Position numbers and translations under genes: made by a program
Source of the DNA: an uncultured Gammaproteobacteria bacterium
GTDB taxonomy: Bacteria > Patescibacteriota > Patescibacteriia > UBA1558 > 2-01-FULL-52-15
Length of the DNA stretch: 61,865 nucleotides
Assembly (NCBI GenBank): GCA_964487895.1
Contig: CAZASM010000002.1
Location: 1-61,865, forward strand
Reading direction: 5' to 3'
In this document: positions 3,733 through 57,142 of the stretch, piece after piece
Layout: each line of letters starts with the position of its first letter
Numbering within the stretch: the stretch's first letter is position 1
The notes under the pieces: model-generated
The model's database searches: none
Seen by the model: the letters and a program-made list of their open reading frames with translations, nothing else
Told to the model about the DNA's origin: nothing

Positions 3733-6109
3733 TTTTCAAAGTATTACGTGCTAAAGAGTCGATTGTACCAGCTCCCATGAAGAGTAAAATATCATCTGAT
3801 GTACTATGCTGAGCTAATAAGCTCTCCACCTGAGACCAATTATCTGCGTACCAGTGAGGTTTGGAACCAAGATCATCACTTAGCTGTTTGGCTGGATCAC
3901 GCAGTTCATGTTCGTCACGACCGGCAACTTCATAAGTGTTAGTGATAATTACTCGATCAGCTCCAGCAAAAGCTTGGCTGAAACGTTCAAACAGTGATTC
4001 CGTGCGAGCATAAGAATGGGGTTGAAAGATAACTAAAACTTTCTTTTTTGGATAAAACTTTTGTGCCGCTTCGATTGTTTTGCTGATTGCAGTTGGGTGA
4101 TGAGCATAGTCAGAATAAGCTGGGCAATTGTGATAGTAACCGATTTTTTCGAACCGTCTCCAAGAGCCTCTGAATTCTGCTAAACACTTCAGGACTGCGG
4201 AGAAATCAAAACTAAGATAGTCAGCGACGGTAATAGCTGCTAAAGCGTTGTAGATATTAAAACGTCCAGGAACTTGCAGTGTAACTGTGGCCCTTAAAGT
4301 GCCGTCGATCAGCAAATCGAACTGGTTGTGTTGATCAATCGTTTGAATATTGACTGCCTGAATGTCGGCTGCTGCGTCAATAGCAAAGGTTCTCTGTTTA
4401 GCTTTTGTAGTAATTATTTGAGAGTTAATATCATCAGCATTACGTACCAGTAGACCCTCCGAAGGTAAGGAGTCAACAAATTTTTGAAACTGACTTTGGA
4501 TATGTTTTAGGTCTGTAAAATAATCCAGATGATCCTCTTCAATATTTGTTATCACCACAACTTTAGGCCGAATATTGAGCATGTGTGAACGATATTCACA
4601 AGCTTCGACTATCAAGAGTTCAGAAGCTCCGGCTAAAAAGTTTCCAGAAAATTGCGGGATTAAACCACCAACAATTACAGTGGGATCATGTTTGGCCTCT
4701 TGAGCCATAAAACCTAGTAAGCCTGTAGTTGTGGTTTTACCATGAGTGCCAGAAACAGCTACTGTGTTATATTTTTCGGACAATAGTCCTAGATATTCAT
4801 TATAAGTATAGGTGGGAATATGCAGACGTTTAGCTTCTACCAATTCCTCATGATTAGCTGGTAAAGCCGAGGAATAGATAAACATGCTAATATTTTTGGG
4901 AATATTTTTCTTTGTCTGTCGGTAATAAATTTTAACACCTAAAGCTTCCAAGCCTTCTGTCACAGTACTGGAGGCCAAATCAGAGCCAGTAACTTTATAG
5001 TTTTGGTGCAAAAAATATCTAGCCAGAGCTGAGAGACCGATACCGCCAATACCGGACAAGTAGACAACTTGTTTTAGCTCAATGGTTAGAGAGATACTTT
5101 CCTTAATCAGTTTTACATAGTTGCTAGTAGCTTGAGGGTTGAAGAGTTTTTTCAAAATCTGGCCCTGTTTTTTGGCTTTGTGTTGGTCATTATGTAATAA
5201 CTCTACGGCCTGCAATAATTCTTGTCCTTTTCCTTGGGAGACAACTTGGGCCGCTTGTTGTTGTAAAAAAAATCCAGCATTACTTTCTTGGTGGCTGTTT
5301 GGTAGCGGTATGATAATTACTGGTTTCGCTACGGAGGCTAACTCCGTCAAAGTAGAAATGCCGCCGCGAGTGATGACAATTGAAGCATTTGCTAGTAGTA
5401 CTGGCAACTCCTCATCGATGAATTTATACCAATGATAATTTGTTTGATTTAAACGTAAAGCCTGATCAGCATTAAACTTCCCTAAGACGTGGTGGATAAC
5501 AAAGCGTTCAGATAAGCTAGGAATAAATTCATTGACAAAGGCGTTAAGACCACGAGCTCCTTGGCCACCGCCAAGAATAACAATATTAGGTTTATCACTT
5601 GTTTCTGATGGCGCAGGTAAATTACGCACGGGATTACCGATACAGGTTACATTTTTCGGTGAGAATAATTTTGCTTGTTGTTCGAAGGTTGTAGTTATTT
5701 TATCAGCCAGTGGAGCCATTAGGCGGTTTGCTAGGCCAAGTTCTAAATCTTGCTGGTGGACAAATATCTTTTTACCCAAAAGTTTGCCAGCGAAAACTAC
5801 TGGCACAGCGACGAAACCTCCAGCGGTCAAGATAATATCTGGTTGGTAGTTCGCTACAATATAGAGCGCCTGAAAAAAACCAATAATCAGATTGACAATA
5901 TCTGTAATATTTTTCCAACTAAGATAACGCCGCAGTTTGCCTGCGGAAATACTGACAGTTCGAATCCCTCTACTTTTCAGAAAGGCAATCTCTGGACCAG
6001 AGCGCGTAGTAACACAAAGATAGTCAGCTTCAGGAAACTGCGCTTTGATAGCTGCCAATGGTGCAACTGGTCCCAGACTACCGCCTCCGGCTAAAAGAAT
6101 CTTATTCAT
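3725..6109 (-). CDS. murG-murC: Fused MurG (lipid II GlcNAc transferase, aa 1 to about 345) and MurC (UDP-MurNAc:L-Ala ligase, aa about 350-794)
   Basis: Single uninterrupted 794-aa ORF. The N-terminal half has GT28 features (GGGSLGPV, TAGGFVAVP, TRGGISTLTE). The C-terminal half has Mur ligase features (GIGGIGLSALA, VSGTHGKTTTT, NIEEDHLDYF). Confidence 0.85.
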   Translation of the reverse strand: MNKILLAGGGSLGPVAPLAAIKAQFPEADYLCVTTRSGPEIAFLKSRGIRTVSISAGKLRRYLSWKNITDIVNLIIGFFQALYIVANYQPDIILTAGGFVAVPVVFAGKLLGKKIFVHQQDLELGLANRLMAPLADKITTTFEQQAKLFSPKNVTCIGNPVRNLPAPSETSDKPNIVILGGGQGARGLNAFVNEFIPSLSERFVIHHVLGKFNADQALRLNQTNYHWYKFIDEELPVLLANASIVITRGGISTLTELASVAKPVIIIPLPNSHQESNAGFFLQQQAAQVVSQGKGQELLQAVELLHNDQHKAKKQGQILKKLFNPQATSNYVKLIKESISLTIELKQVVYLSGIGGIGLSALARYFLHQNYKVTGSDLASSTVTEGLEALGVKIYYRQTKKNIPKNISMFIYSSALPANHEELVEAKRLHIPTYTYNEYLGLLSEKYNTVAVSGTHGKTTTTGLLGFMAQEAKHDPTVIVGGLIPQFSGNFLAGASELLIVEACEYRSHMLNIRPKVVVITNIEEDHLDYFTDLKHIQSQFQKFVDSLPSEGLLVRNADDINSQIITTKAKQRTFAIDAAADIQAVNIQTIDQHNQFDLLIDGTLRATVTLQVPGRFNIYNALAAITVADYLSFDFSAVLKCLAEFRGSWRRFEKIGYYHNCPAYSDYAHHPTAISKTIEAAQKFYPKKKVLVIFQPHSYARTESLFERFSQAFAGADRVIITNTYEVAGRDEHELRDPAKQLSDDLGSKPHWYADNWSQVESLLAQHSTSDDILLFMGAGTIDSLARNTLKNA

Positions 6110-9339: not shown

Positions 9340-9942
9340 ATGAATCTCACCAAGCGCCAAAAAGAAATTCTGGACTTTATCGGTAGCTTTGCCATGTCTC
9401 ATGGCTATTCTCCTAGTTATCGTGAAATTGCGAAACATTTTCATCTGACATCAGTTTCCACCATTCATGAGCATATCTCTGCTTTAGTAGAAAAGGGTTA
9501 CTTACAGAAAGAAACTAATATGGCTCGATCTGTAGATATTATCGCCACTGAGATTGAATCAGGCACACTCGAGTTACCATTAGTGGGTCTAATCGCTGCC
9601 GGTGAGCCCATAGAAGCCATTGAGACACGCGAATCAATTGCTGTGCCAGAGAATCTAGTGGAGAATCCGAATAGCTACGTTTTGAAGGTTAAAGGCAACT
9701 CGATGATTGAAGAAGGTATTCTCGACGGTGATTATGTTATTGTGGAGCGCAATTTCTACCCGCAGAACGGTGATGTCGTTGTGGCTCTCCTCGACAATAC
9801 CTACGCAACTTTAAAGAAATACTACAGAGAGAAGAATTGTATTCGTTTACAGCCAGCGAACTCCGCCATGTCCCCTATCTTTGTCCAGAATCCGGCTATT
9901 CAGGGTATTGTCAGAGGGATATTTAGAAAATTTAGTATGTAG
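9340..9942 (+). CDS. lexA: SOS repressor LexA (S24 autopeptidase)
   Basis: N-terminal winged HTH (LTKRQKEILDFI...YSPSYREIA), an AG cleavage region (IAAGEP), and the catalytic GNSM...K pattern. Confidence 0.9.
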   Translation: MNLTKRQKEILDFIGSFAMSHGYSPSYREIAKHFHLTSVSTIHEHISALVEKGYLQKETNMARSVDIIATEIESGTLELPLVGLIAAGEPIEAIETRESIAVPENLVENPNSYVLKVKGNSMIEEGILDGDYVIVERNFYPQNGDVVVALLDNTYATLKKYYREKNCIRLQPANSAMSPIFVQNPAIQGIVRGIFRKFSM

Positions 9943-45430: not shown

Positions 45431-45718
45431 TCAGGCGTGAAGGTAGCCACCGTAAGGCACATAGCGGATCAGCCGCTTGTCGTTTCTCGGCAAGTCAATG
45501 ACTTCACCAGGGCAGCCGATCTCTCCTCTGCAGAAGTCACAGCACTGTGAATCACACTCTGTTTCTCCCAGACCCATGAGCTCATGCAGCCCCGTAATGG
45601 ATGCGCTGGCCTCACCGTAAGCCAAAACGGGATTTACCAAGACAGGGGTCTGCTTCGAGCAGTGAGGACACCTGACATAGATCAGGTCAATCATTTCACA
45701 TGCTGGAATAGCTGTCAC
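45431..45718 (-). CDS. Cysteine-rich small protein (95 aa), family unknown
   Basis: GTG start preceded by AAGGAGG with 4-nt spacing. 55% GC in my sample at 45481-45540. Contains CPHC and CDSQCCDFCRGEIGCPG clusters and has its own terminator. Confidence 0.55.
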   Translation of the reverse strand: MTAIPACEMIDLIYVRCPHCSKQTPVLVNPVLAYGEASASITGLHELMGLGETECDSQCCDFCRGEIGCPGEVIDLPRNDKRLIRYVPYGGYLHA

Positions 45719-46316: not shown

Positions 46317-47204
46317 CTAAGGCTGTAAAATTGTTTCCGACTCGCCGTTGATAGAGATAATAACAGATTTCACTGTTGGGAATTGTTTCAAAGTTTTCTC
46401 AATTTGTGAACGAATCATCGTCACACGACAAGAACCAGCAACGTTGACGTTTAGCAACTCACTAAAATCAGCTTTGGCCACTCCTTTTTCAATTGTCAAT
46501 TTTTGCAAAACCACTCCTGGGTTGATAGCACTGAAATAACCATTATTAACATCTTGAGTTTGCGGACCGCGCAATAAATCTTCTAAGGCAGCTTGCCCTA
46601 CAGCAGTTGTCTTAGCTACACGACGTTCCAAACTATACACTTTCTCACAATCCAATGCTTGAGGGTCTTTAATTCCGTTAGGATAAAAAACTTTAACCTT
46701 AGTTGACTCTACTTGAGCGAAGGTCACTGAAACTTTGGACAAATTTATCTCGGCGCCATCTTTAGCTGAATGACTATAGACTTCCACCGTGCCTGTCGTA
46801 CCTTTTGGTTGCGGATAAGAAACTTCCACACGATACGGTCCGAAGAGTCCAACGTCAGGAGCATTAGAAGTAGTGAAGCCTTGAGCAAGGACAGTACCAT
46901 CGCTATCTTTCAGCCGATAGTTCAAATTATTTTCAAAGACGCGAGCTTGACCAGAGATGATTAGAGGCAGACCAATTGCTTGACCTTCTGTTGGTTGCTC
47001 GAGAGTAATATTTTGTTGTGGTGCACTAGGACAAGGCGCAAACTGACAGTTCCAACCACTACGACCAACTGGTGTGCCATCAGGACAAAGCATAGCGTCA
47101 TCAGGACAAGCAGCTTCGCGGATAGTTTTGGTCGTGGTGTACCAGTAGATTCCACCAACAAGAGCAATAACAATGATCGGGACAATGATTTTCCAATATT
47201 TCAT
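46317..47204 (-). CDS. Secreted protein with Gmad2 Ig-like and GerMN domains
   Basis: N-terminal TM segment MKYWKIIVPIIVIALVGG. Central PLIISGQARVFENNLNYRLKD (Gmad2-like) and C-terminal ALEDLLRGP...SAI...SVIISING (GerMN-like). Start moved to the ATG at 47202-47204. Confidence 0.65.
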   Translation of the reverse strand: MKYWKIIVPIIVIALVGGIYWYTTTKTIREAACPDDAMLCPDGTPVGRSGWNCQFAPCPSAPQQNITLEQPTEGQAIGLPLIISGQARVFENNLNYRLKDSDGTVLAQGFTTSNAPDVGLFGPYRVEVSYPQPKGTTGTVEVYSHSAKDGAEINLSKVSVTFAQVESTKVKVFYPNGIKDPQALDCEKVYSLERRVAKTTAVGQAALEDLLRGPQTQDVNNGYFSAINPGVVLQKLTIEKGVAKADFSELLNVNVAGSCRVTMIRSQIEKTLKQFPTVKSVIISINGESETILQP

Positions 47205-47290
47205 AATGTATAGGTTAATTGATAATAGTATAGGGCAGGTAAGGGTTTTGGGCAACCACGATAGTATTAAGTTTATCGCTGTTTGTCTCT

Positions 47291-47334
47291 ACCCCCACGC
47301 CCTCCCCCTTACTAAGGGGGAGAAAAGAGGGGGT
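47291..47334. repeat. GC-rich compound hairpin at the left edge of the cassette
   Basis: ACCCCC-acgcc-CTCCCCCTTA-c-TAAGGGGGAG-aaaaga-GGGGGT, with a 6-bp outer stem and a 10-bp inner stem. Confidence 0.8.
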
Positions 47335-47379
47335 GTTTAGCCTTCGCCTAGAAACCTAAGAAGCTAGTTCCGTATCCAC

Positions 47380-47408
47380 TTGACACATAACCCATATCAT
47401 GCTATAAT
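47380..47408 (+). promoter_or_regulatory. Consensus sigma70 promoter driving the plus-strand cassette
   Basis: TTGACA (47380-47385), exactly 17 nt, then TATAAT (47403-47408), preceded by TGC (extended -10 TGnTATAAT). The first ORF starts 56 nt downstream. Confidence 0.75.
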
Positions 47409-47463
47409 ACTATATTAAAGGCTAAAACTAGCCAAAAGTTCCTTTCACCTTCGGGAGATAGAA

Positions 47464-47895
47464 ATGAACGAATACAGAGCATTTGGCGCTTTCGTCATTC
47501 TCGTAATGCTGGCTGGGCTCATGGCCGACGTTTATGAGCACCAAACAGTGTCCTACAAACTCGTCTACGGAGACACGGTAACTGACAGTGCGACTGTCGT
47601 GACCGAATACCATGACGGTAGTATCGTACAAGGCATTCAACCGGGCCTGGTAATTCAACCGAGTCCTCAGTTGAATCCGATTCTCTTCTTTACCGCTAAG
47701 GCTCCGGTCTGGAAGACCACAATCACGACCAACGGCGGGCTGCAGTGGATCTTTGATGATGAAGAACACTATAAGCTTTTCAAGAATCGTGATTCGCTGA
47801 TAGTCACTTACCACACCGTATCTCGTGATCGGTACGAACGGTCCAAATTCGTTCGAAGATTTGTCGAGAGTCCGATGTTAGTGACTGTGGACTAA
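47464..47895 (+). CDS. Cassette ORF A: membrane-anchored hypothetical protein (143 aa)
   Basis: SD GGGAGA 5 nt upstream of the ATG. N-terminal TM segment FGAFVILVMLAGLM. First gene after the consensus promoter. Confidence 0.6.
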   Translation: MNEYRAFGAFVILVMLAGLMADVYEHQTVSYKLVYGDTVTDSATVVTEYHDGSIVQGIQPGLVIQPSPQLNPILFFTAKAPVWKTTITTNGGLQWIFDDEEHYKLFKNRDSLIVTYHTVSRDRYERSKFVRRFVESPMLVTVD

Positions 47896-48101
47896 CCCGA
47901 TGATTTTCACATGTCTCCCTCTTCCCGCTCCGAACCCCATGTTCGGAGCATCACCCAAGTCTATAACTTCGTTGTAGATTTAGGCGATCACTGTTCCTTT
48001 CACTATCCTCCCTACCTCCCTGGCGATACATTTACTTGCCGTCAGAGAGGTAGCGAGGATTCAGAAGTTCCAAACCCTATATGGAAAGGAAGTCTCAGGC
48101 A

Positions 48102-48482
48102 ATGAAGCCATTTGCTCTAGAATCCACCTTACCTGATAAGATCTTCGGGACATCTGACCCCAGGGCAATCATCGGGGGCTTCATTCGTATCAATGGTCAT
48201 CTTATTACAAGGATCGACGGTATCAGTCTCAAACTTAGACTTACTGGTACCGAGTTGAGACTCTTTGTTCCCATTCCACTGTGGAATGTAAAGACACCGG
48301 ATGGGTCATATATCGGTGATGTCAGATGTCTGACATGTCTCTACGACGTGCACAAGGGACAGAACTGGTACATCGATATTGTACCTAGAGACACAAAGTT
48401 CCCTACTTCGGGACTTTCACGATCCGGATTCTCCGAGGGTCTGTGTGAGTCGATTCAGTTTGAATGGTTGGGAAACGACTAG
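48102..48482 (+). CDS. Cassette ORF B: hypothetical protein (126 aa)
   Basis: Start MKPFALE chosen because GGAAAGGAAG lies upstream. The track ORF begins 21 nt earlier without an SD. No family recognised. Confidence 0.55.
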   Translation: MKPFALESTLPDKIFGTSDPRAIIGGFIRINGHLITRIDGISLKLRLTGTELRLFVPIPLWNVKTPDGSYIGDVRCLTCLYDVHKGQNWYIDIVPRDTKFPTSGLSRSGFSEGLCESIQFEWLGND

Positions 48483-48661
48483 CCATCAACTCGATCTTCA
48501 CAACGACAGACCGCAATGGTTACTGTTCACCCCGCCCCGACAGCAATGTTGGGGCCACTTCCAAGCGCTTTAGCTCTATTGAACTTGAGCGCTTAGAAGT
48601 GACTTAGTTCCTTACAACTTTCAACTTACAACTGTTTCCAACTACTATCATGGAGCCCACT

Positions 48662-48823
48662 ATGATTGAGATGGTAGGTACTAATTGGATTCGTCTAATT
48701 GTTACCTCGATCTCTATTCATTGGCTGCATTTTCCTTGTGAAGATGTAAAGCCCATTGAGACCCAACAGCTTCTGGCTGAAGGGATGAGCTCCATAATTG
48801 TGGTTGGAAATAATCCAACCTAA
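48662..48823 (+). CDS. Cassette ORF C: possible small protein (53 aa; 57 aa if the start is 48650)
   Basis: Below the ORF-track cutoff and read by hand: MIEMVGTNWIRLIVTSISIHWLHFPCEDVKPIETQQLLAEGMSSIIVVGNNPT. GGAG lies 6 nt upstream. GC is lower than in the neighbours, so coding status is uncertain. Confidence 0.25.
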   Translation: MIEMVGTNWIRLIVTSISIHWLHFPCEDVKPIETQQLLAEGMSSIIVVGNNPT

Positions 48824-48880
48824 TAGTCCGTGTTCGGGCATCCTCGTCTGACAGAAGATCAAACTTGTTTGGAGGAAATG

Positions 48881-49141
48881 ATGGCAACGTTCATCACGAT
48901 CCCCGGTGGCAAGACGAAGAAGTTCCGCGCCCGGTTCTCCGGACACGAGACCATGAGCCGCGCCAAGTATGAGCGCATCGATGGGTTTCGGCCCAAGAAC
49001 CGTTTCCTGCCGAACTTCATGCAGGAGGTCGACGTGCCGGATCTCCGGTACTACCCGACGCTCTGCACCGAAAACGGTGTCTCCTGCGCTCCGGCTCACG
49101 AGTGGCCCGACAGCAACGGCGAACACTTCATCGCGGTCTGA
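48881..49141 (+). CDS. Cassette ORF D: hypothetical protein (86 aa)
   Basis: GGAGG 5 nt upstream of the second ATG. G/C at nearly all third codon positions in this frame, which argues for plus-strand coding over the longer antisense ORF. Confidence 0.65.
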   Translation: MATFITIPGGKTKKFRARFSGHETMSRAKYERIDGFRPKNRFLPNFMQEVDVPDLRYYPTLCTENGVSCAPAHEWPDSNGEHFIAV

Positions 49142-49169
49142 ATTCCACATTCACAATGGAGGGCGGAAA

Positions 49170-49385
49170 GTGAAAGATCTTATCACACTGTCTGAAGTCG
49201 TCGAGCTGTTGCTGGCAAAGGGCCTGAAGCAGTTCGCTGAGGCCGACAACGGGACCACCAAGACCTACATCTTCACCATCCCTGGTGAGCCGGACTTGAT
49301 TCAGATCGAAGGTCCGACTGATCGTCCGGTCAAGGTGGTCGCGTCCGAAGCGGCCAGTCGATTCGTGGACACCTATCTGCACTAG
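49170..49385 (+). CDS. Cassette ORF E: hypothetical protein (71 aa, GTG start)
   Basis: GGAGG 7 nt upstream of an in-frame GTG. The track ORF (48969-49385) extends upstream through ORF D in another frame. Confidence 0.55.
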   Translation: MKDLITLSEVVELLLAKGLKQFAEADNGTTKTYIFTIPGEPDLIQIEGPTDRPVKVVASEAASRFVDTYLH

Positions 49386-49429
49386 CAGACCGGCATTAGG
49401 CAGTCTGCACCAATCGAAAGAGGTGTGTC

Positions 49430-49579
49430 ATGGAGCAGATCAAACAGATTCGACCTGTTATCTTCACCCCCGAGCAGCTCAAGGCTGTCACGGGCAAGGC
49501 CACCTGTAACTGTGTCTATCATGCTGAGCAGGGAATTCCCTGTGAGCATGATCTCGCGCTGCTCAAGCGCGGCAAGTAA
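49430..49579 (+). CDS. Cassette ORF F: 49-aa stand-alone SWIM-type zinc-finger micro-protein
   Basis: Hand-translated: MEQIKQIRPVIFTPEQLKAVTGKATCNCVYHAEQGIPCEHDLALLKRGK. SD AGAGGTG is upstream. The C26-x-C28-x9-C38-x-H40 spacing fits the CxCxnCxH SWIM signature. Confidence 0.55.
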   Translation: MEQIKQIRPVIFTPEQLKAVTGKATCNCVYHAEQGIPCEHDLALLKRGK

Positions 49580-49708
49580 CACTGGAGCTTCACGCTCGTC
49601 TTCCCCGAACCAATGCATCAGCAAAGGTTCGGGGGTCTACTCAAGCTTTCAATTCGTTGACGGTTTAAGCAGATCCCGTTCTTTGAAACAATTTAAATAG
49701 AGGTCTCT

Positions 49709-49918
49709 ATGACTTTCCATGAGTTGATGATGTCCAAGCATCAGTCAATGATCTTGGATTATTTCGAGATCTGGCTGAAAGATCCTACTGCAGTCCCTCA
49801 CGAAGTCGATGTTCTTCTTCATGAGGCGGCACTGACGGAAGATTTAAAAGAACGCCTACCGCAAGTCCAGTTCCTGCTTGATCTCAAGCGCAGACTAGAA
49901 AAGATTGCGCTGACATAA
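49709..49918 (+). CDS. Cassette ORF G: hypothetical acidic helical protein (69 aa)
   Basis: AGAGG 5 nt upstream of the ATG. No family recognised. Confidence 0.55.
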   Translation: MTFHELMMSKHQSMILDYFEIWLKDPTAVPHEVDVLLHEAALTEDLKERLPQVQFLLDLKRRLEKIALT

Positions 49919-49937
49919 TCTCTCGAAAGGAGATACG

Positions 49938-50123
49938 ATGGAATCCCAACTGATGGGAATCGGCATCCTGCTCACCGTGCTCTACGGCATGTGTCACATG
50001 CTGGGAGTGCGAGCTCGCCGTGCCTACTGGCGCAGTCTGCGCTGGTGCGCTGTCGGTCTGATTCGGGTCCCCGTCCTCGCTATTCGTGGACTGGCGAATG
50101 CCATTCTGCGACTGATTCTCTAA
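49938..50123 (+). CDS. Cassette ORF H: small membrane protein with an arginine-rich tail (61 aa)
   Basis: AAGGAG 5 nt upstream. TM segment GIGILLTVLYGMCHML, then RARRAYWRSLRW and a second hydrophobic stretch. Confidence 0.55.
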   Translation: MESQLMGIGILLTVLYGMCHMLGVRARRAYWRSLRWCAVGLIRVPVLAIRGLANAILRLIL

Positions 50124-50135
50124 AAGGAGGCTCTG

Positions 50136-50426
50136 ATGTCCAGACTGGATTTTGTAGTGTACTCAGACGGTAGGGTCAACGTCAGTAAGAACCTGACGTT
50201 GGCCGCAGACATCGCCAGTGAGAAACGGGACGGTACCAATCCGACCACACTCCAGAGTCACTTCCACCTGGAGTTCAATCAGGTGGACTCTGCTAACGAA
50301 GCGTTGAACATCCTCATTGCCGCTCACTACCTGGAGATGAGCGGCAACCCCCAGGAATCTGGCGCCAGCGGAGTCGAAAAGCTGGTGTCGGCCATCGTCG
50401 AGGCCCAGCGTCAGCCGTCGGACTAG
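50136..50426 (+). CDS. Cassette ORF I: hypothetical protein (96 aa)
   Basis: AAGGAGG 5 nt upstream. Last gene before the terminator. Confidence 0.6.
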   Translation: MSRLDFVVYSDGRVNVSKNLTLAADIASEKRDGTNPTTLQSHFHLEFNQVDSANEALNILIAAHYLEMSGNPQESGASGVEKLVSAIVEAQRQPSD

Positions 50427-50446
50427 TACCCCACGCAACACGCGTT

Positions 50447-50485
50447 CCGCCCGACCTATCGCAAGATAGGACGGGCGGTTTTTTT
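50447..50485 (+). terminator. Strong rho-independent terminator ending the cassette
   Basis: CCGCCCGACCTATC-GCAA-GATAGGACGGGCGG (13 bp paired, with one A-A mismatch), followed by TTTTTTT. Confidence 0.85.
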
Positions 50486-50487
50486 AC

Positions 50488-50614
50488 CCAGCACCACTTT
50501 CATCCAGCACCTGTTTCGCTCTCAAAGTTTAGGCTTACTCTTTAAATTCTATATAGTAGAAATCTTTTCTTATCATGAAATTATTCGTGCGAAACAGGTG
50601 CTGGATGGTGCTGG
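50488..50614. repeat. Long-range inverted repeat flanking a 69-bp AT-rich spacer
   Basis: The left arm is CCAGCACC (50488-50495) plus ATCCAGCACCTGTTTCGC (50502-50519). The right arm is GCGAAACAGGTGCTGGAT (50589-50606) plus GGTGCTGG (50607-50614). That gives 18 perfect bp plus 8 bp across a 6-nt bulge. Confidence 0.85.
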
Positions 50615-50616
50615 AT

Positions 50617-51300
50617 TTATTTCTTCGCTTCTAGTTCAGTCGCAGTTGTTGGATTAAATCCTTTGAATGTCAGCCACAGACCCAATGAAAATTCAAAGAC
50701 AGCCACCGGCAGAGCCGACAAGCCGGCAATTGGAGCGTGCTGTCCCACTAAACCAAACATCACTGCCAGATAGCTGACGAGCAGGATAGGGCCGCCAATG
50801 ATACCAATGACAGCCAGTCCTCGAGGTATCAGACGTGACTTATAGAGCAAAACTCCGAGTAAAATATCATTTATAGCCGGCATGAAGCTTTGGCCCAGCA
50901 GGAAGATACGATCATAGAGCGTAGCTAAGGTATGTCCAATTAGCTGTGCCTCTGCGCCAACTCCCTCCTGTCGCAAGGTCACGATGGTTAGAAGGAAAGC
51001 TACACCGACGAATATGGTAGCTGCTTCCAGTGTGCGGGCTGCGACCAGACCAAGGGCTAAGCGTTCACTTTGCTTCTTGAGCATCGGATACAAGACCACT
51101 GCCGTAGCGATACCTGCCAATGCCACAATGATCTCGAGGATGCCGCCAATAATGGTCACTGTGTCTGGTCCAGTGCCAGTAATATAACTCGGGCTATGTA
51201 TGGCAGTATAGAGTACCAGTGTCGGGATAGAGACGAACGTTAGCAAGTAGAGCAAGCCTGCTGTCAAAGAAATCTTTCTGTGTGCAGTCATCATAATCAT
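50617..51300 (-). CDS. DUF4386-like integral membrane protein (227 aa)
   Basis: Polytopic membrane protein. The N-terminal LTAGLLYLLTFVSIP... pattern resembles DUF4386 as I remember it. 58% GC in my sample, so part of the foreign block. Confidence 0.55.
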   Translation of the reverse strand: MIMMTAHRKISLTAGLLYLLTFVSIPTLVLYTAIHSPSYITGTGPDTVTIIGGILEIIVALAGIATAVVLYPMLKKQSERLALGLVAARTLEAATIFVGVAFLLTIVTLRQEGVGAEAQLIGHTLATLYDRIFLLGQSFMPAINDILLGVLLYKSRLIPRGLAVIGIIGGPILLVSYLAVMFGLVGQHAPIAGLSALPVAVFEFSLGLWLTFKGFNPTTATELEAKK

Positions 51301-51426
51301 TTTTATAAATTAAACTAATGTCGCTGTATTATACAGGTAATCAAGGGAAATAGATATCATATAAAATTTATAAAAAAACAGCCTTTTCAGACCTTTTGTT
51401 GGCACGCCATGAACCATAACGGTTCA

Positions 51427-51500
51427 TGGCTCGGGGACAGGGAGTCGAACCCCGATTGGCGGGACCAAAACCCGCTGTCCTACCTTTAGACGATCCCCGA
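51427..51500 (-). tRNA. tRNA-Gln (anticodon UUG), CCA encoded
   Basis: Hand-folded cloverleaf. Acceptor TCGGGGA/TCCCCGA, D stem GTCT/GGAC, anticodon stem GCGGG/CCCGC with loop TTTTGGT, T arm CGGGG-TTCGACT-CCCTG, discriminator G plus CCA. 74 nt. Confidence 0.9.
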
Positions 51501-51659
51501 ATGATGCAATTATAACTAAGATAATATAGTGGTTTAAACCGTAAAAGTCAATAATCAGCCTTGACAAAATTTGTTTTCGTGGTACGTTCAAATCATAAGA
51601 CACCGTTTCCCAACCCTGTGGATTACGGTGACACTACGTTCCATCACAAGGAGGTTAAG

Positions 51660-52157
51660 ATGAAGAAAATCGTCGGTTTAGTGCTGTGTCTCGGATTCTG
51701 TCTCGGGCTCATGACCACAGCTCAGGCAGCAAACGGACCTGCCGCACTCTGGGTTGCAGACGTCAGTTCGACCCCTACCCACTGGAATATCGAGACCAGT
51801 GCGACCATCACAGCTGAGGTTCGTGGAGTCGAGATTACTCCACTTCAACCGACAATCCCTGTCTGGGTGAAGAGCTCTGACTTTGGCAATCAGGAACTCC
51901 TCGCCTATCGCATCGGCGCTACCAACAACTACTCCTTCACCTACAAGCCACCAGACAACGCCTGCAATACCACTGTGGTCGCCTATGGAACAATCGGTCA
52001 CAATGCTAGCAACGACTTGATCGATGACGACCTGTTGAACAACAGCTCATCTGCAGCAGCTGGCTTCCGCTTCCTCTACCTCGGCGCACCTCTGGACTGT
52101 CATCCACTACCGATCAAGCCGATCACATGGGGAGCTCTGAAAGCGCGCTACAACTAG
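51660..52157 (+). CDS. Secreted hypothetical protein (165 aa)
   Basis: AAGGAGG 5 nt upstream of MKKIVGLVLCLGFCLGLMTTAQA, a signal peptide with an AQA cleavage site. 63% GC in my sample. The longer track ORF start has no SD. Confidence 0.6.
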   Translation: MKKIVGLVLCLGFCLGLMTTAQAANGPAALWVADVSSTPTHWNIETSATITAEVRGVEITPLQPTIPVWVKSSDFGNQELLAYRIGATNNYSFTYKPPDNACNTTVVAYGTIGHNASNDLIDDDLLNNSSSAAAGFRFLYLGAPLDCHPLPIKPITWGALKARYN

Positions 52158-52175
52158 CAACGCGTCCACCATCTT

Positions 52176-52212
52176 CGGGAGAGAACTATGTTCTCTCCCG
52201 TAATTTATTTAT
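52176..52212 (+). terminator. Hairpin terminator after the secreted-protein gene
   Basis: Perfect 11-bp stem CGGGAGAGAAC/GTTCTCTCCCG with loop TAT, followed by the T-rich TAATTTATTTAT. Confidence 0.6.
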
Positions 52213-52244
52213 GCTACAATTGTCACAAGACAAAGTATAATATT

Positions 52245-52823
52245 ATGATTTTAACTGATTCGGCCCATTATAATTTTATTAAATCTCTAACCTGGGAAGA
52301 AGTTTTCGAAATCTGGCGAGCTAATGAAGAAGCTAATCCTGCCTGGATTGCTCACTGGAAATCCAAAGGCTTTACTTCTTGGGAAAACTGGCGTCAAACT
52401 TTATCAGGGCCGTGGCATTGTGAGACTCGCCAATGGGAGCTCTACCGAGTGATTAATCCTTTAGCAGTGAGTCCTGGCTGGCGTGGTGGATCATTTAGAA
52501 CGTGGAGAACATTTTATTATCAAGGACAAGACTTCGCAACCTTCAGAGATATCGTCTCTGGTCCGAATATTCAGACGCATCCAGGATATCAAAAAATGCT
52601 TCTGATGTATGACGACTTTCCAGGTAAAACTACTATGTCCGCTTTCTTCACTGACCAAGGAATCGTCATCGCCGAAGGTATGCACCGTGGTTGCGCTCTA
52701 GCTCTCGCCGACCTCAATCACAAATCGATCACAACGGAAATATATCTGGCTGTTGCTGACGCGCGTGGAGAAACACTCGCTCCTGTCGGACAGAAACCTG
52801 AGGACAGTGGAATACGACTGTAA
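52245..52823 (+). CDS. Hypothetical Trp-rich protein (192 aa)
   Basis: Start moved to MILTDSAHY because the track start lies inside the preceding terminator hairpin. TATAAT lies 3 nt upstream of the ATG, with no SD. No family recognised. Confidence 0.5.
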   Translation: MILTDSAHYNFIKSLTWEEVFEIWRANEEANPAWIAHWKSKGFTSWENWRQTLSGPWHCETRQWELYRVINPLAVSPGWRGGSFRTWRTFYYQGQDFATFRDIVSGPNIQTHPGYQKMLLMYDDFPGKTTMSAFFTDQGIVIAEGMHRGCALALADLNHKSITTEIYLAVADARGETLAPVGQKPEDSGIRL

Positions 52824-52841
52824 CGATTTTAGTTAATTATA

Positions 52842-52891
52842 AAACCCGAGGTCCGACACTATCGTCGATTAACCTCGGGTTTGATTTTTTT
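52842..52891. terminator. Hairpin between the convergent 52245-52823 gene and deoD
   Basis: AAACCCGAGGT (19-nt loop) ACCTCGGGTTT, an 11-bp stem, followed by GATTTTTTT on the plus strand. Confidence 0.6.
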
Positions 52892-52898
52892 CAAGCAA

Positions 52899-53600
52899 TC
52901 ATGCCAGCTTGACAGCGACCCTCACCATGTTGTCAAGAGTCTGTTCACGCTGCTCGGCCGACATCCTATCACCAGTTGCCAAGCTATCGCTGACAGTCAG
53001 AATGGTCAGCGCCTCGACATGATGCTTCGCAGCGAGAGTATAAAGCTCATAGGCTTCCATCTCCGCTGCGAGCACTCCATACTGCGCCCACATCTTCCAA
53101 CCCTCTGGATCCTCCGAATAGAAGGTATCGGTTGAAAGGACATTTCCCACCGTAACCTTGAGCCCCAACTCTTGGCAGACTTGATGCGCCTGCAACAGTA
53201 GCTCCCAAGAAGCTAGAGGTGAGAATGTCCAAGCGCCAAACCTGGCCACATTCATCGCGGAGTCAGTGCAAGCACCAGCTGCGAGAATTAAGCTTCCCAA
53301 CGGCAACTCGGCGCTAAAAGAGCCACAGGTTCCGACTCTAATCAATCTTTTGACACCGAATTCCACGATCAGCTCGGTGCAGTAGATAGACAACGAGGGC
53401 ATACCCATACCAGTACCTTGGGCACTGATGGGCTTACCATTAGAAGTTGTCCCCGTGTAGCCCAGCATATTGCGCACACTGTTAACGCGGCGACCATCAT
53501 TGATGAAATTGTCAGCGATGTGCTTGGCCCTGAGTGGATCTCCAGGTAGAAGGACGGTTCGGGCATAATCACCACGATTCGCACCGATATGTGTGCTCAT
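52899..53600 (-). CDS. deoD: Purine nucleoside phosphorylase, DeoD type
   Basis: THIGA..GDYA..VLLPGDPLRA, GMGMPS and VGTCGS motifs. 233 aa. 55% GC in my sample. Confidence 0.9.
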   Translation of the reverse strand: MSTHIGANRGDYARTVLLPGDPLRAKHIADNFINDGRRVNSVRNMLGYTGTTSNGKPISAQGTGMGMPSLSIYCTELIVEFGVKRLIRVGTCGSFSAELPLGSLILAAGACTDSAMNVARFGAWTFSPLASWELLLQAHQVCQELGLKVTVGNVLSTDTFYSEDPEGWKMWAQYGVLAAEMEAYELYTLAAKHHVEALTILTVSDSLATGDRMSAEQREQTLDNMVRVAVKLA

Positions 53601-53656
53601 GTCTAACCCCTTTCGCTGACTAGGTGGGAGAACAAAAAAAGATCATTTACTTCCAG

Positions 53657-53684
53657 ATACTAGCAGTAAAGGGTGATTTGTCAA
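53657..53684 (-). promoter_or_regulatory. Candidate sigma70 promoter of deoD
   Basis: Minus strand: TTGACA (53679-53684), a 16-nt spacer, then TAGTAT (53657-53662). An AAGGGG SD precedes the ATG. Confidence 0.5.
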
Positions 53685-53795
53685 TTTACCCCGTTAGATA
53701 GAAGTTATCTAACGGGATAAAAAAAGCAGCTAAACTGTTCGGCTACTTTTACTCGACTCTTATTTCACAACCAGTAATCCTGAGAAAACAATAGG

Positions 53796-55457
53796 CTAGT
53801 TATTTATCCGCTTCTTGGCAACTTGCAACAAACCTGTGAATAACGGATGTGGCTTCAAAGGTCTAGATTCGAACTCGGGATGAAATTGAGTAGCGATGAA
53901 ATACGGGTGAACCGTCTTCGGTAGCTCGATTATCTCCACCAAATCATTATCAGGACAGATGCCGGAGAAAACTAGGCCTGCTTTGGCTAACTGTTTTTTA
54001 TACTTATTATTGAACTCATAGCGATGGCGATGACGCTCACTTATTTTGCCAGAACCATACAACGATCGTGCCAGAGAATTTTTCTGCAGTACGCAAGGAT
54101 AAGAACCTAGCCGCATACTATTACCAAAATGTTTGGCTGCTAGATTTTTTGCTTGCTGTTCATTGATATGAATAATCGGCTCAGTTGTTGCTTCATTGAT
54201 CTCCACTGTATCTGCCGACTTGATCCCTGCTACATTACGCGCAAATTCGATAGTCGCCAACTGCATGCCATAACACAATCCCAAATACGGTATCTTGTGC
54301 ACACGGGCGTACTCGATAGCTTTCAATACCCCTTTGATACCACGTGAGCCGAAACCTCCCGGAACGATAATAGCGTCCATTTGATCCAAGGTTTTCAAGG
54401 TCGTCTTTGGCGCTTTACCCCGCTCAGCGGGGTCAAAGTCCGCCGAATCTATCCAATGCAGCTCTGGTTTGACACCTGCTGCCACACCAGCGTGTTTGAT
54501 AGCTTCGATAACTGAAATATAAACATCAGACAAGACATAGTCGCCGGACAAAAAATACTTCCCCACCACCCCAATTTTGACTTTTGACTTTTGACTTTTT
54601 AGTTTTTTCACCATCGCTCGCCAGTCGTGCATATCTTTTTTGCGAGGTTTTAATCCAAATTTAGCCAAAATTTTATTACCGATATCGTTTTTCTCGAAAT
54701 TAATAGGAATATCATAGATACTATCAACGTCAGGCGCTGAGATGGCATCTTCAGCGTTGATATTACAGAAAGTAGCTATCTTGTCTCGACGCTTGCGATC
54801 AAGTGGCTGCTCTGAGCGACAAACGATAAAGTCTGCCTGAATACCCGCGCTATTAAGTGTTTGGGAAGCGTATTGCGTTGGCTTGGTCTTCATCTCTCCA
54901 ATCTTCGGTGGTACGGGCAGATAGCTGACGAGAATGAACTGCACATCAGCTGGCGCCTTCAGCTTCATCATGCGAGCGGCCTCCAAGAAAATCATGTTCT
55001 GATACTCACCTATCGTCCCCCCGACCTCAATAATTGTGAAGTCGGCATTGGCCAATTTTGTTGCCTTCTTGATTCTACCGATGATCTCATTAGGAATATC
55101 TGGCACTACTTCCACACACTTACCATCATAGCCGAGATTGCGCTCACGCTGAATAACCGTGGAGTAGACTCTGCCAGTCGTCATGTAGTTTGACCGAAGA
55201 ATATTGATGTTCAAAAAACGTTCATAGTTACCAATATCTTGGTCAGTCTCATCGCCATCAATGGTAACAAAAACTTCACCATGAATCGTTGGATTCATGG
55301 TGCCGGCATCGACATTGATATAGGGATCAATTTTAATAGCTGTGACTTTATAGCCCTTGCTTTGCAAAATAGCGCCAATAGACGCGGAGGTGACTCCTTT
55401 ACCAACACCCGACATAACACCACCAACAACAAAAATATATCTATTTTTTTTGATCAT
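53796..55457 (-). CDS. pyrG: CTP synthase
   Basis: YIFVVGGVMSGVGKG, a GATase domain with GLCYGMQ, and HRHRYE. Start set at MIKKNRYIFV. Confidence 0.95.
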   Translation of the reverse strand: MIKKNRYIFVVGGVMSGVGKGVTSASIGAILQSKGYKVTAIKIDPYINVDAGTMNPTIHGEVFVTIDGDETDQDIGNYERFLNINILRSNYMTTGRVYSTVIQRERNLGYDGKCVEVVPDIPNEIIGRIKKATKLANADFTIIEVGGTIGEYQNMIFLEAARMMKLKAPADVQFILVSYLPVPPKIGEMKTKPTQYASQTLNSAGIQADFIVCRSEQPLDRKRRDKIATFCNINAEDAISAPDVDSIYDIPINFEKNDIGNKILAKFGLKPRKKDMHDWRAMVKKLKSQKSKVKIGVVGKYFLSGDYVLSDVYISVIEAIKHAGVAAGVKPELHWIDSADFDPAERGKAPKTTLKTLDQMDAIIVPGGFGSRGIKGVLKAIEYARVHKIPYLGLCYGMQLATIEFARNVAGIKSADTVEINEATTEPIIHINEQQAKNLAAKHFGNSMRLGSYPCVLQKNSLARSLYGSGKISERHRHRYEFNNKYKKQLAKAGLVFSGICPDNDLVEIIELPKTVHPYFIATQFHPEFESRPLKPHPLFTGLLQVAKKRINN

Positions 55458-55879: not shown

Positions 55880-57142
55880 TTATTTCAACTTTTCTTGAAT
55901 TACTGCTTGAGCTTTCTCTAGCTGAACATCAGTAGTAGTCGCGCTATCTGTTGGTCGTTCGATAATAACATCTGGTGTGATACCTTCACCTTGAATTGTT
56001 CGCCCCTTTGGTGTCAACCATTTTGCTACTGTTACTTTCAAGGCTGAGCCATCAGAGAATGGCAAGAGATTTTGCACTGAACCTTTACCAAATGATTTAG
56101 TCCCGACAATTATCGCTTTGCCATAATCTTGCAAGGCTCCAGCCATAATCTCTGAGGCCGAAGCAGAACCTTCGTTAATTAAAATCACAGTCGGAATTTC
56201 TGGAGCATGGATAGCTTGTTCTGCTTTGTAATCAATATTTCTCCCTTCATCAGTGAAGGTTTCTTTCACTACTACCTGACCTTTATCAATCCAAGAGCTA
56301 GAAATAGTGACAGAAGCATCGAGGAAACCACCCGGATTATTGCGTAAGTCAATGATTAAACCTTGAGGATTTTGTTTAATAATCTCGTTTAAAGCTTTGA
56401 TGAATTTCTTATCCACGTCTTTATTGAAACTGACAATCTGCAGATAAGCCACGTTATTATCCAACTTCTTCCAGGTGACGGTAGGATACGAGATGGTGTC
56501 ACGAGTAATTTTCACTGTCACAGGCTGGGAGTCTTTACTATCCTTATGGACAACTGTCAGCGAAACGACTGAACCTTTAGGTCCACGAATCTTCTCCACT
56601 GCTTGGTTCAGATCCATCTCATGGGTAGCAACATTATCAATAGCCACGATGGCGTCGCCAGCTAGTAGTCCCGCTTTCTCAGCTGGACTCAAAGGCAAAG
56701 GAGCAACAACGAGCAATTGACCATCTTTACTACTGAGTTCAGCGCCAATACCTTCAAACTTACCATCTAAGTCTTGATTAAAGGCGGCGTTTGCTTTGGG
56801 ATCAAAATAATCAGTATAGGGGTCACCAACTGCTTGAACCATGCCCTTGATAGCACCGTAATACAACGCTTCATTGTTAATCTTGTCATGATCAACATAC
56901 TCTGCTTGAATCTCATCCCAAACGTTCCAAAAAAGATTAGGATCAAGGTTGCGCTTCTTAGCTTCGGCAATACCGTTGTTTCTCCAAGCTTGAACATTAA
57001 TTTGTCCAGGAAGTAAGGCCGTACCAGCATCAACTCGTGCCACTACATAACCGAATATAAAAGCAATAAAAATAATGAGGGGCAACCAAAGGCCCCGTCG
57101 TGACGATGTATTTGTGGTAGGTATGATAGGTGTGGATGACAT
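55880..57142 (-). CDS. Carboxy-terminal processing protease (S41 family) with PDZ domain
   Basis: GIGAEL, a PDZ domain (SPAEKAGLLAGDAIVAID), LRNNPGG, the catalytic GSASASEI region, and KGSVQ. Confidence 0.85.
   Translation of the reverse strand: MSSTPIIPTTNTSSRRGLWLPLIIFIAFIFGYVVARVDAGTALLPGQINVQAWRNNGIAEAKKRNLDPNLFWNVWDEIQAEYVDHDKINNEALYYGAIKGMVQAVGDPYTDYFDPKANAAFNQDLDGKFEGIGAELSSKDGQLLVVAPLPLSPAEKAGLLAGDAIVAIDNVATHEMDLNQAVEKIRGPKGSVVSLTVVHKDSKDSQPVTVKITRDTISYPTVTWKKLDNNVAYLQIVSFNKDVDKKFIKALNEIIKQNPQGLIIDLRNNPGGFLDASVTISSSWIDKGQVVVKETFTDEGRNIDYKAEQAIHAPEIPTVILINEGSASASEIMAGALQDYGKAIIVGTKSFGKGSVQNLLPFSDGSALKVTVAKWLTPKGRTIQGEGITPDVIIERPTDSATTTDVQLEKAQAVIQEKLK

Follow-up and report, generated by a model that had tools for sequence, protein, structure and literature searches.

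A putative resident, hypervariable operon of small genes, framed by repeated junction units, beside tRNA-Gln in a Patescibacteria-like chromosome

Contig CAZASM010000002.1 of assembly GCA_964487895.1 was analyzed over 61,865 nucleotides (61.9 kb, hereafter the window), the backbone of which is an ordinary bacterial chromosome segment encoded nearly entirely on the minus strand. Between a Gmad2/Germane gene, its divergent neighbor, and a tRNA-Gln gene lies a cassette of small plus-strand open reading frames (ORFs) at 47291–50485. With one exception, all ORFs of at least 150 aa over 2.8–47.3 kb are on the minus strand, confirming the strand flip noted in an earlier sequence-only reading of this DNA. 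That reading took the cassette for a self-contained foreign insertion of nine orphan ORFs, resembling phage early or moron, anti-defense or toxin–antitoxin operons. Comparison with sibling genomes favors a different interpretation, in which we place about even confidence: the window would carry one version of a resident, hypervariable accessory operon found in a lineage resembling Patescibacteria, also known as the Candidate Phyla Radiation (CPR), with junction units that act on the mRNA and products linked to the envelope or pilus.

The left end of the cassette is a GC-rich hairpin in the divergent intergenic region (47291–47334; −28.9 kcal/mol, z −3.4), upstream of a plus-strand sigma-70-type promoter (47380–47408). 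The promoter consists of TTGACA and TATAAT hexamers separated by 17 nt, with an extended −10 TG, and matches the consensus at 12 of 12 positions. It is the sole such site in the window, where 0.02 would be expected, and the only other plus-strand promoter-like site within the cassette is weak (49910–49939, 9/12). The leader that follows (47420–47449) comprises a 5′ stem-loop, GGCTAAAACTAGCC, and the first copy of a junction motif described below, GTTCCTTTCACC (47438–47449). At the right end, an intrinsic terminator (50447–50485) combines a 13-bp GC stem, a GCAA loop and a U7 tract; its hairpin (50447–50478) folds at −28.8 kcal/mol with a z score of −5.5, and it was not picked up by a consensus scan, probably because of an internal A·A mismatch. 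The hairpin, the promoter and the terminator had been proposed by eye and stand after calculation, and so does the view that the small, compositionally atypical genes of the cassette form one unit running from promoter to terminator.

The count of nine ORFs, labeled A to I, was too high, since one (C) is not a gene and two (E and F) are parts of a single split gene. A GGAGG-like Shine–Dalgarno sequence had been reported before every ORF and is present 5–6 nt ahead of seven of them (A, D, E, F, G, H, and I), whereas C has none and B has none at its called start, 48081. Three of the ORFs are found in the window only. ORF A (47464–47895, plus strand, 143 aa) has an N-terminal hydrophobic anchor, as previously suggested, and is followed by two hairpins (47927–47988); it is an orphan forming a singleton cluster, and a search of 5.8 billion proteins returned no homolog. 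ORF B (48081–48482, plus strand, 133 aa as called) probably starts at 48102, judging by inspection, giving a protein of 126 aa. ORF G (49709–49918, plus strand, 69 aa) lies downstream of a hairpin (49603–49634), is predicted by eye to be helical, and has GC contents of 0.60/0.24/0.51 at its three codon positions. Neither B nor G, each an orphan in a singleton cluster, matches anything in the loci compared.

ORFs D, H, and I have a few relatives. ORF D (48881–49141, plus strand, 86 aa) is 81% identical to P0039 of the L003 lineage, its sole homolog; no other real homolog was found among 1.84 billion representatives. Comparison of the two copies gave 12 synonymous and 17 non-synonymous changes in the plus frame versus 6 and 23 for the long antisense ORF, which argues that D codes on the plus strand and not, as had been allowed for, on the other. 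ORF H (49938–50123, plus strand, 61 aa) is basic (isoelectric point 11.5) and hydrophobic (grand average of hydropathy 0.93), with two apparent transmembrane segments that agree with the earlier reading; it resembles the T4SS_pilin family weakly and below threshold (E 0.005). Its single relative, in L030/L031, is 60% identical and likewise lies directly upstream of a homolog of I. ORF I (50136–50426, plus strand, 96 aa) is acidic and is the final gene of the operon in four lineages. Its three relatives (P0043–P0045) share 27–36% identity, with conserved termini (MxRLDF... and ...SGVE..) and a diverged center, and its AlphaFold model is of low confidence. The I homologs always adjoin the conserved terminator and, in L002 and L032, adjoin the DUF4386 gene as well.

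ORFs E (49170–49385, plus strand, 71 aa) and F (49430–49579, plus strand, 49 aa) align end to end with single proteins of 85–108 aa from L002, L003, L023, and L024, E covering their N-terminal two-thirds. In the window the gene is interrupted by a stop, a new Shine–Dalgarno site and about 20 new codons, and the same split occurs in an independent Logan contig (L001). E and F are two halves of one gene, EF, that siblings keep whole. The N-terminal domain is modeled by AlphaFold as an α–β4–α fold with a predicted local distance difference test score of 80–90. The C-terminal part is a Zn-knuckle module with the motif G.A.CGCVxHAEQGIPCEHDLAL. A SWIM-like identity had been proposed for ORF F from its CxC..CxH pattern; the pattern is real, and the match to SWIM (PF04434; E 0.014, 15.3 bits) is below the 19.6-bit Pfam cut-off. 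A profile of EF recovers about 30 small proteins (50–172 aa), none with a Pfam domain, that share only the module of about 22 residues, situated at the N-terminus, the C-terminus or the middle of otherwise unrelated sequences. The ligand signature C-x-C-x10-C-x-H is nearly invariant in 22 aligned members. The module has the CxC-x10-CxH spacing of SWIM zinc fingers and differs from them in being a stand-alone unit with an additional invariant HAE[QD]GIP, joined to unrelated small domains at either end; it defines a family absent from Pfam. As a separate observation, the DNA encoding the module is 86–91% nucleotide-identical between window 49511–49551, L019 10208–10248 and L024 230–287, even between otherwise unrelated contigs, which seems to exceed what amino-acid constraint alone needs.

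To place the cassette among its relatives, species-representative genomes were scanned with the flanking Gmad2/Germane protein. The closest sibling is L002 (94% amino-acid identity in the flanking gene), with L003, L026, L027, and L028 at 87%, and farther matches are mostly labeled Patescibacteria (Staskawiczbacteria, Paceibacterota, Zambryskibacteria). The organism is probably a bacterium of the Patescibacteria/CPR type, and the label 'Gammaproteobacteria' given to the sibling TPA metagenome-assembled genomes seems to be a placeholder. In all five siblings the hairpin/promoter/leader and two noncoding blocks, block 1 and block 2, occur in the same order and on the same strand. The L002 left flank, hairpin, promoter and leader match window 47260–47433 at 84% (blastn); the corresponding match spans 47260–47436 in L028 and 47378–47436 in the remaining siblings. 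Both promoter hexamers are kept in L002, L027, and L028, the leader is without variation across four sequences, and the hairpin has a counterpart in L002 and is inverted in L028. Block 1 (47993–48069) is 91% identical to L002 and 88% to L003, higher than the flanking genes, block 2 (48552–48810) is 80–83% identical to both, and the terminator (50446–50489) is 93–97% identical in L002, L030, and L032, while the gene upstream of it is only about 30% identical. Overall, the noncoding blocks are 80–97% identical versus 75–81% DNA identity for the flanking genes, yet the DNA between the blocks is unrelated among siblings. It follows that the scaffold is native to the lineage and that the genes within it are the changing part, replaced, split or highly diverged. 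The self-contained foreign insertion first proposed does not fit this pattern, as the scaffold occupies the same syntenic site in siblings and only the genes differ. Searches in siblings and viromes, as had been recommended, returned that same sibling locus and, with two protein families and three DNA motifs, nothing in IMG/VR.

Within the scaffold, a repeated unit composed of a hairpin, the motif GTWCCTTWCAAY (as RNA, GUWCCUUWCAAY) and a second hairpin stands ahead of cassette genes in three lineages. Three copies of the 12-mer GTWCCTTWCAMY are found in the window (47438, 47993, and 48607), all on the plus strand and inside the cassette; 0.15 copies would be expected in the window, and at least three were seen in 0 of 100 shuffles. 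L002 has four copies, L003 two to three and L023 three, all in the variable locus and all but one on the coding strand, and one junction unit is inverted in L023. On the 5′ side of each copy is a stable hairpin (−20 to −31 kcal/mol), represented in the leader copies by just a short 5′ stem-loop; on the 3′ side is a long imperfect hairpin with a CU-rich 5′ arm (−25 to −42 kcal/mol), followed by a Shine–Dalgarno sequence and a gene. The preceding hairpin, P1, comes in two sequence types with one shape. Junction copies were folded singly; a joint MAFFT/RNAalifold treatment of eight short copies did not register the two P1 types. The homology breakpoints between the window, L002 and L003 coincide with the edges of these units. 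Cassette A (47437–47992) is specific to the window, has the 11-nt direct repeat GTTCCTTTCAC, part of the motif, at both sides, and is missing in L002, L027, and L028, in which block 1 directly follows the leader. No publication on the motif came up in a literature search. The leader of L002 also carries, right after the promoter (9770–9835, minus strand), a 63-nt palindromic insertion with TAGCC repeats at its flanks that is not in the window, L027 or L028; insertions seem to gather in the leader in more than one lineage.

Block 1 is junction unit 2 (47993–48069, plus strand), made up of motif copy GTTCCTTTCACT and a 19-bp imperfect hairpin whose 5′ arm is rich in C and U (−32 kcal/mol, z −5.2). 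Block 2 is junction unit 3 (48556–48812, plus strand), a predicted structured RNA of about 255 nt (z −7.8 versus shuffles) in which the downstream hairpin has a three-way junction inserted. It contains the P1 hairpin (48556–48601), motif copy GTTCCTTACAAC (48607–48618) and a 25-bp stem (48635–48659/48786–48810) that closes the three-way junction. In an alignment of three lineages 96% of cells are paired, and six compensatory pairs are found versus 2.1 ± 1.1 in shuffles and 0–3 in slid controls. The junction units are probably under RNA-level selection on the coding strand, as indicated by the one-sided changes in block 2, all of which produce G·U on the plus strand. A covariance model of block 2 (R1) detects shorter paralogous copies in L002 and L023 (E 1e-10 to 1e-13). 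A search of Rfam over 47000–51600 gave nothing credible at E up to 1, only tRNA reaching the gathering threshold, and a metagenome DNA-pattern scan for block 2 returned nothing.

What had been called ORF C (48650–48823) lies inside this conserved structure. Sibling copies differ there by 1-nt indels, the ORF has no Shine–Dalgarno sequence, and it is absent from the gene calls of the protein collection; we rejected it as a gene and regard it as part of the plus-strand RNA element. A further feature of the same element is that the P1 hairpin is invariant and holds the self-complementary octamer AAGCGCTT twice, with 26 nt between the two starts, the palindrome being AAGCGCUU twice. P1 might just as well be an operator acting as DNA and bound by a protein, for instance the Zn-knuckle protein whose gene lies downstream.

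The gene content of sibling alleles offers hints to function. In L002 and L023 the promoter is followed by block 1, a 52-aa transmembrane ORF, block 2, EF, a membrane-anchored protein of 122–128 aa, two type IV pilin genes, two paralogous 150-aa proteins (F12), the I homolog and the terminator. The two L002 pilins match N_methyl (PF07963) at 26.5 and 36.9 bits against a cut-off of 21.2 bits, and N_methyl pilins are present in L023 as well. The EF proteins of these two loci are 95% identical, and still whole genes differ between them. L003 contains block 2, D and EF together with two small transmembrane ORFs and a 134-aa protein in which an LTGC lipobox was recognized by eye; the slot of ORF B is filled by small transmembrane ORFs in siblings (52 aa in L002, 70 aa in L003). 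EF, with its Zn-knuckle, is the only protein kept across alleles. On a distinct CPR contig from a distant lineage (L021), a Zn-knuckle family member is found amid a pilin-like protein, a membrane protein, a prepilin-peptidase-like gene and a pilin. There, and only there, a prepilin-peptidase-like gene adjoins the Zn-knuckle gene; one motif copy precedes it by 14 nt, and a P1-like hairpin, CUUCCAAGC..., follows the Zn-knuckle gene. These associations direct attention to type IV pilins and envelope proteins and not to the phage or defense functions first suggested.

The cassette is richer in GC (50.8%) than the backbone, as had been reported, although the backbone stands at 40.7% and not 35%. 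Nor is the rise limited to 47.29–50.49 kb: GC is raised in patches over 45.2–53.6 kb, which outside the cassette include 45431–45718, the DUF4386 gene (50617–51300), 51561–52157 and a PNP_UDP_1-family phosphorylase gene (52899–53600). Among the cassette ORFs, A, B, and G have 49, 47, and 45% GC versus 61, 59, and 57% for D, H, and I. GC at third codon positions (GC3) is 0.84 in D, bearing out the impression that nearly every third position in 48881–49141 is G or C, 0.74 in I, 0.72 in E, 0.66 in F and H, and 0.50–0.56 in A, B, and G, and is about 0.33 in backbone genes. The region is therefore a compositional mosaic within a wider plasticity zone around tRNA-Gln. Cassette genes of L002, L003, and L023 have GC3 values of 0.65–0.80, and the L021 cluster reaches 0.73–0.92 versus 0.41 in its backbone and adjacent ribosomal genes. 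Codon bias from high expression was considered as a source and is unlikely, given that EF-Tu and the ribosomal genes of L021 are themselves at about 0.41. Repeated import from a GC-richer gene pool, or a recombination-associated bias, might explain it.

The expectation that hardly any product would belong to a known family has been borne out. Pfam, PHROGs, NCBIfam, and PADLOC searches of the cassette ORFs gave nothing above threshold, with no PHROGs match at E < 0.1 and, for eight cassette ORFs plus two neighbors, no PADLOC match at E up to 0.1. A look-up of exact clusters gave nothing but singletons. Domain searches of the cassette likewise found no capsid, helix-turn-helix, nuclease, ATPase or other effector domain. 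Neither a PDB sequence search for EF, A, and B nor a Foldseek comparison of the EF and I AlphaFold models with PDB and BFVD gave a significant match.

The conserved scaffold (hairpin, promoter, leader, junction units and terminator) frames gene slots with fast turnover. We hypothesize that the whole operon is transcribed as one mRNA and that the single-stranded motif between two hairpins may be a site of processing or stabilization through which every cistron gains protected ends of its own. The same units might also supply homology for recombinational exchange of cassettes. The products would then be small envelope or secreted proteins, together with a Zn-knuckle (SWIM-like) protein, for cell-surface or type IV pilus-linked interactions. 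This last part is the more doubtful, and we hold it tentatively at most. It is suggested because siblings carry pilins, as does L021, an unrelated CPR cluster with the same Zn-knuckle protein and the same motif, because many products have membrane anchors or signal sequences, and because the only protein common to the alleles is the Zn-knuckle EF.

Several observations weigh against this interpretation. First, the window allele is without a pilin: no window ORF matches N_methyl in a Pfam scan, no pilus assembly genes (PilB/C/D/M-Q) were found in the 62-kb window, and a role at the pilus or surface is suggested by associations seen in two other lineages. Second, no structural or sequence homolog backs the function of any cassette protein, and other members of the Zn-knuckle family reside in unrelated chromosomal contexts. 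Third, the single transcript and its processing are predictions from sequence, and the block 2 covariation comes from three lineages only, with the reverse strand equally good by folding energy. Finally, a resident operon does not account for the high GC3, which fits repeated import from a GC-richer pool that may include mobile elements such as those suspected in L035, L036, and L040.

A bolder version of the hypothesis is that the locus belongs to an undescribed cassette-operon system of Patescibacteria, defined by hairpin–GUWCCUUWCAAY–hairpin units, the RNA of about 255 nt and the EF protein. A fixed promoter would express interchangeable genes for small surface proteins, the units serving as sites of both RNA processing and exchange, in a manner like that of an integron without an integrase in cis, and EF possibly binding the units. 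We regard this extended proposal as unlikely in its entirety.

Also unlikely is that the cassette is the remnant or cargo of a mobile element, such as the early or moron operon of a prophage, or an island integrated at tRNA-Gln, with anti-defense or accessory genes acquired from a donor richer in GC. Small orphan ORFs strung behind a strong promoter, next to a tRNA gene whose 3′ end faces the island, are what such an element would look like, and the GC3 of D, E, F, H, and I (0.66–0.84 versus 0.33 in the backbone) agrees with it. Some Zn-knuckle members moreover lie on GC-rich contigs (L035, L036) that consist of small orphan ORFs on one strand and may be mobile elements, and another (L040) adjoins a KaiC/RecA-like ATPase with weak PHROG helicase matches. 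However, no integrase, recombinase or transposase was detected by Pfam scans of the ORFs examined in 43.7–57.1 kb and of all cassette ORFs, consistent with the earlier statement that none is present, and none appears in the sibling locus L026. With up to three mismatches allowed, the window has a single copy of the 22-nt 3′ end of tRNA-Gln, leaving no att repeat. Searches of PHROGs and PADLOC were negative, as noted, as were those of 50,697 phage and 72,556 plasmid records (blastn/tblastn), of phage proteins with A and B, and of IMG/VR with two protein families and three DNA motifs; the phage early, moron, anti-defense and toxin–antitoxin analogies of the earlier reading find no echo in any of them. 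In addition, the scaffold is a stable chromosomal feature of siblings diverged at the species level, and no empty site was seen.

The organization of the locus also recalls an integron-like, site-specific system, in which hairpin–GTWCCTTWCAAY–hairpin units would be recombination sites used by a recombinase encoded elsewhere for capture behind a fixed promoter. We judge this quite unlikely. The cassettes are co-oriented, promoterless and mostly orphan, they depend on one strong promoter, and they are separated by imperfect hairpins with an invariant core. The breakpoints of homology at unit edges, the 11-nt core repeat around cassette A and the lack of A in siblings, the gain and loss of cassettes between the near-identical L002 and L023, and the inverted unit of L023 would all be natural products of such a system. 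Yet no tyrosine or serine recombinase adjoins the locus in the window, L002 or L003/L026, the core GTTCCTT appears by inspection not to fit the attC R′ consensus GTTRRRY, and no cassette was seen in two positions or two loci. The units lie upstream of genes as 5′ untranslated regions do, and their one-sided changes to G·U point to selection acting on the RNA. CALINs are groups of attC sites that have no integrase. Compared with integron arrays and CALINs, the present locus shares one promoter, many short and mostly orphan co-oriented ORFs, core-bearing imperfect hairpins between them, and contents that differ among close relatives; it differs in having no IntI, the divergent neighbor being the Gmad2/Germane protein, and in the sequence, upstream position and G·U-type conservation of its units, besides the lack of visible cassette mobility between sites.

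A toxin–antitoxin, abortive-infection or phage-defense module, for instance an H and I pair in a defense island, is improbable in our view. The H–I pair is kept in L030, a 61-aa basic membrane peptide next to a 96-aa acidic protein would suit such a pair, and the fast divergence of I between conserved termini and a conserved terminator, in a variable zone by a tRNA, is as an arms race would give. In L002, however, the I homolog stands without H, and the PADLOC, Pfam, and NCBIfam results, the lack of nuclease, ATPase or other effector domains and the fold search with the I model, which gave no informative match, lend no support. Finally, an assembly chimera or a mis-binned fragment on an AT-richer backbone, which the provenance of the window as a contig of a metagenome-assembled genome, the GC shifts within the region and breaks in the Logan assembly of SRR8893623 (at 48965 and 50145) might suggest, has a negligible chance of being correct and is effectively refuted by independent assemblies: the join of the Gmad2 gene to the hairpin and promoter recurs in L002, L027, and L028, that of block 2 to D and EF in L003, L027, and L028, and that of I to the terminator and the DUF4386 gene in L002 and L032, all from other samples, and the short contigs L027, L028, L029, and L032 repeat these joins between them.

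Variable islands by tRNA genes and variable pilin loci are well-known kinds of locus, and a resident, hypervariable operon shares features with both. The pilA locus of Pseudomonas aeruginosa reportedly adjoins tRNA-Thr. Like the loci compared here, pilA loci offer a fixed slot by a tRNA gene for strain-specific small genes of atypical composition with strong expression signals, and the two N_methyl pilins of the L002 and L023 alleles add to the likeness. Five pilA alleles, groups I–V, have been described in that species (bioRxiv 10.1101/150227). Unlike those loci, the window allele is without a pilin and has no neighboring pilB, pilC or pilD, and the junction units, the 255-nt RNA and the Zn-knuckle protein are without counterpart there. 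The CPR 'Pam' pilus was also considered; its Ig-fold pilins are of other classes and unrelated to the present locus. Genomic islands have been reported as common in Patescibacteria (PMC12455944). Flexible islands resemble the locus as plasticity zones near tRNA genes that are rich in orphans, deviant in GC and subject to turnover among close relatives, but are not described as having a noncoding, regulatory scaffold that is itself conserved and repeated inside.

For RNA processing, the closest parallel is the papBA operon of Escherichia coli, where intercistronic cleavage yields a stable pilin mRNA. The arrangement of hairpin, single strand and hairpin between cistrons, in operons that carry pilins in siblings, would by analogy be compatible with endonucleolytic cleavage and differential stability. 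In the present locus such processing is a proposal, and its motif and hairpins are unrelated in sequence to those of papBA. The novelty of the locus lies in the junction unit, with its repeats, and the RNA of 255 nt, both absent from Rfam, in the Zn-knuckle module, which is not in Pfam, and in a consistently GC3-rich cluster in separate CPR lineages.

The surroundings of the cassette hold further features. The tRNA-Gln(UUG) gene (51427–51500, minus strand), the right-hand anchor of the variable zone, is kept in L002 and L003. Between the cassette terminator and the stop codon of the DUF4386 gene lies a 129-nt inverted repeat (50487–50615; −53.7 kcal/mol, z −8.4) whose arms, about 33 nt long, both contain CATCCAGCACCTGTTTCGC; it is present in a single copy in the window, is replaced by a different hairpin in L002, and could be an insert like a miniature inverted-repeat transposable element or the terminator of the convergent gene. 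Just beyond the left border of the cassette, a Cys-rich ORF of 95 aa (45431–45718, minus strand; 53.5% GC) with its own terminator-like hairpin (45419–45380) is 42–44% identical in siblings versus 72–95% for adjoining genes, making it a further fast-evolving, GC-rich small gene. Across tRNA-Gln is a second variable zone (window 51500–53800; L003 3954–6818; L002 2519–4227), which in the window encodes a 198-aa protein with an apparent signal peptide (52% GC) and a 211-aa protein, in L003 contains an ABC transporter insertion along with a 171-aa gene, and in L002 is different again.

The backbone itself encodes MurB, a MurG–MurC fusion, FtsW, MraY, MurJ, PBP2, two MreB proteins, LepA, a class II tRNA synthetase, RseP and glycosyltransferases, and, farther along, CTP synthase and an S41 peptidase. 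The window further contains two tRNAs and RNase P RNA. The fused cell-wall enzyme is a 794-aa ORF (3725–6109, minus strand) joining MurG (glycosyltransferase 28) to a MurC-type Mur ligase. A match to Rfam RF02800 (Rickettsia sRNA47) at 56032–56347 on the plus strand, scoring 60.3 against a gathering score of 60, lies antisense within the S41 peptidase gene (55880–57142) and is probably spurious, produced by conserved coding sequence that the model contains.

CPR/Patescibacteria rely on contact with host cells, and to our knowledge little is known of surface variation and gene regulation in these bacteria. The locus described here is a hotspot that swaps small envelope, pilin and orphan genes among close relatives under one very strong promoter, and it yields a candidate new structured RNA together with a repeated intercistronic element. 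It also illustrates how, when DNA is read without tools, a resident hypervariable locus can look like an insert of foreign origin and a structured RNA like an ORF. Should the junction units turn out to be sites of processing or exchange, they would provide a searchable marker for variable loci in uncultured bacteria.

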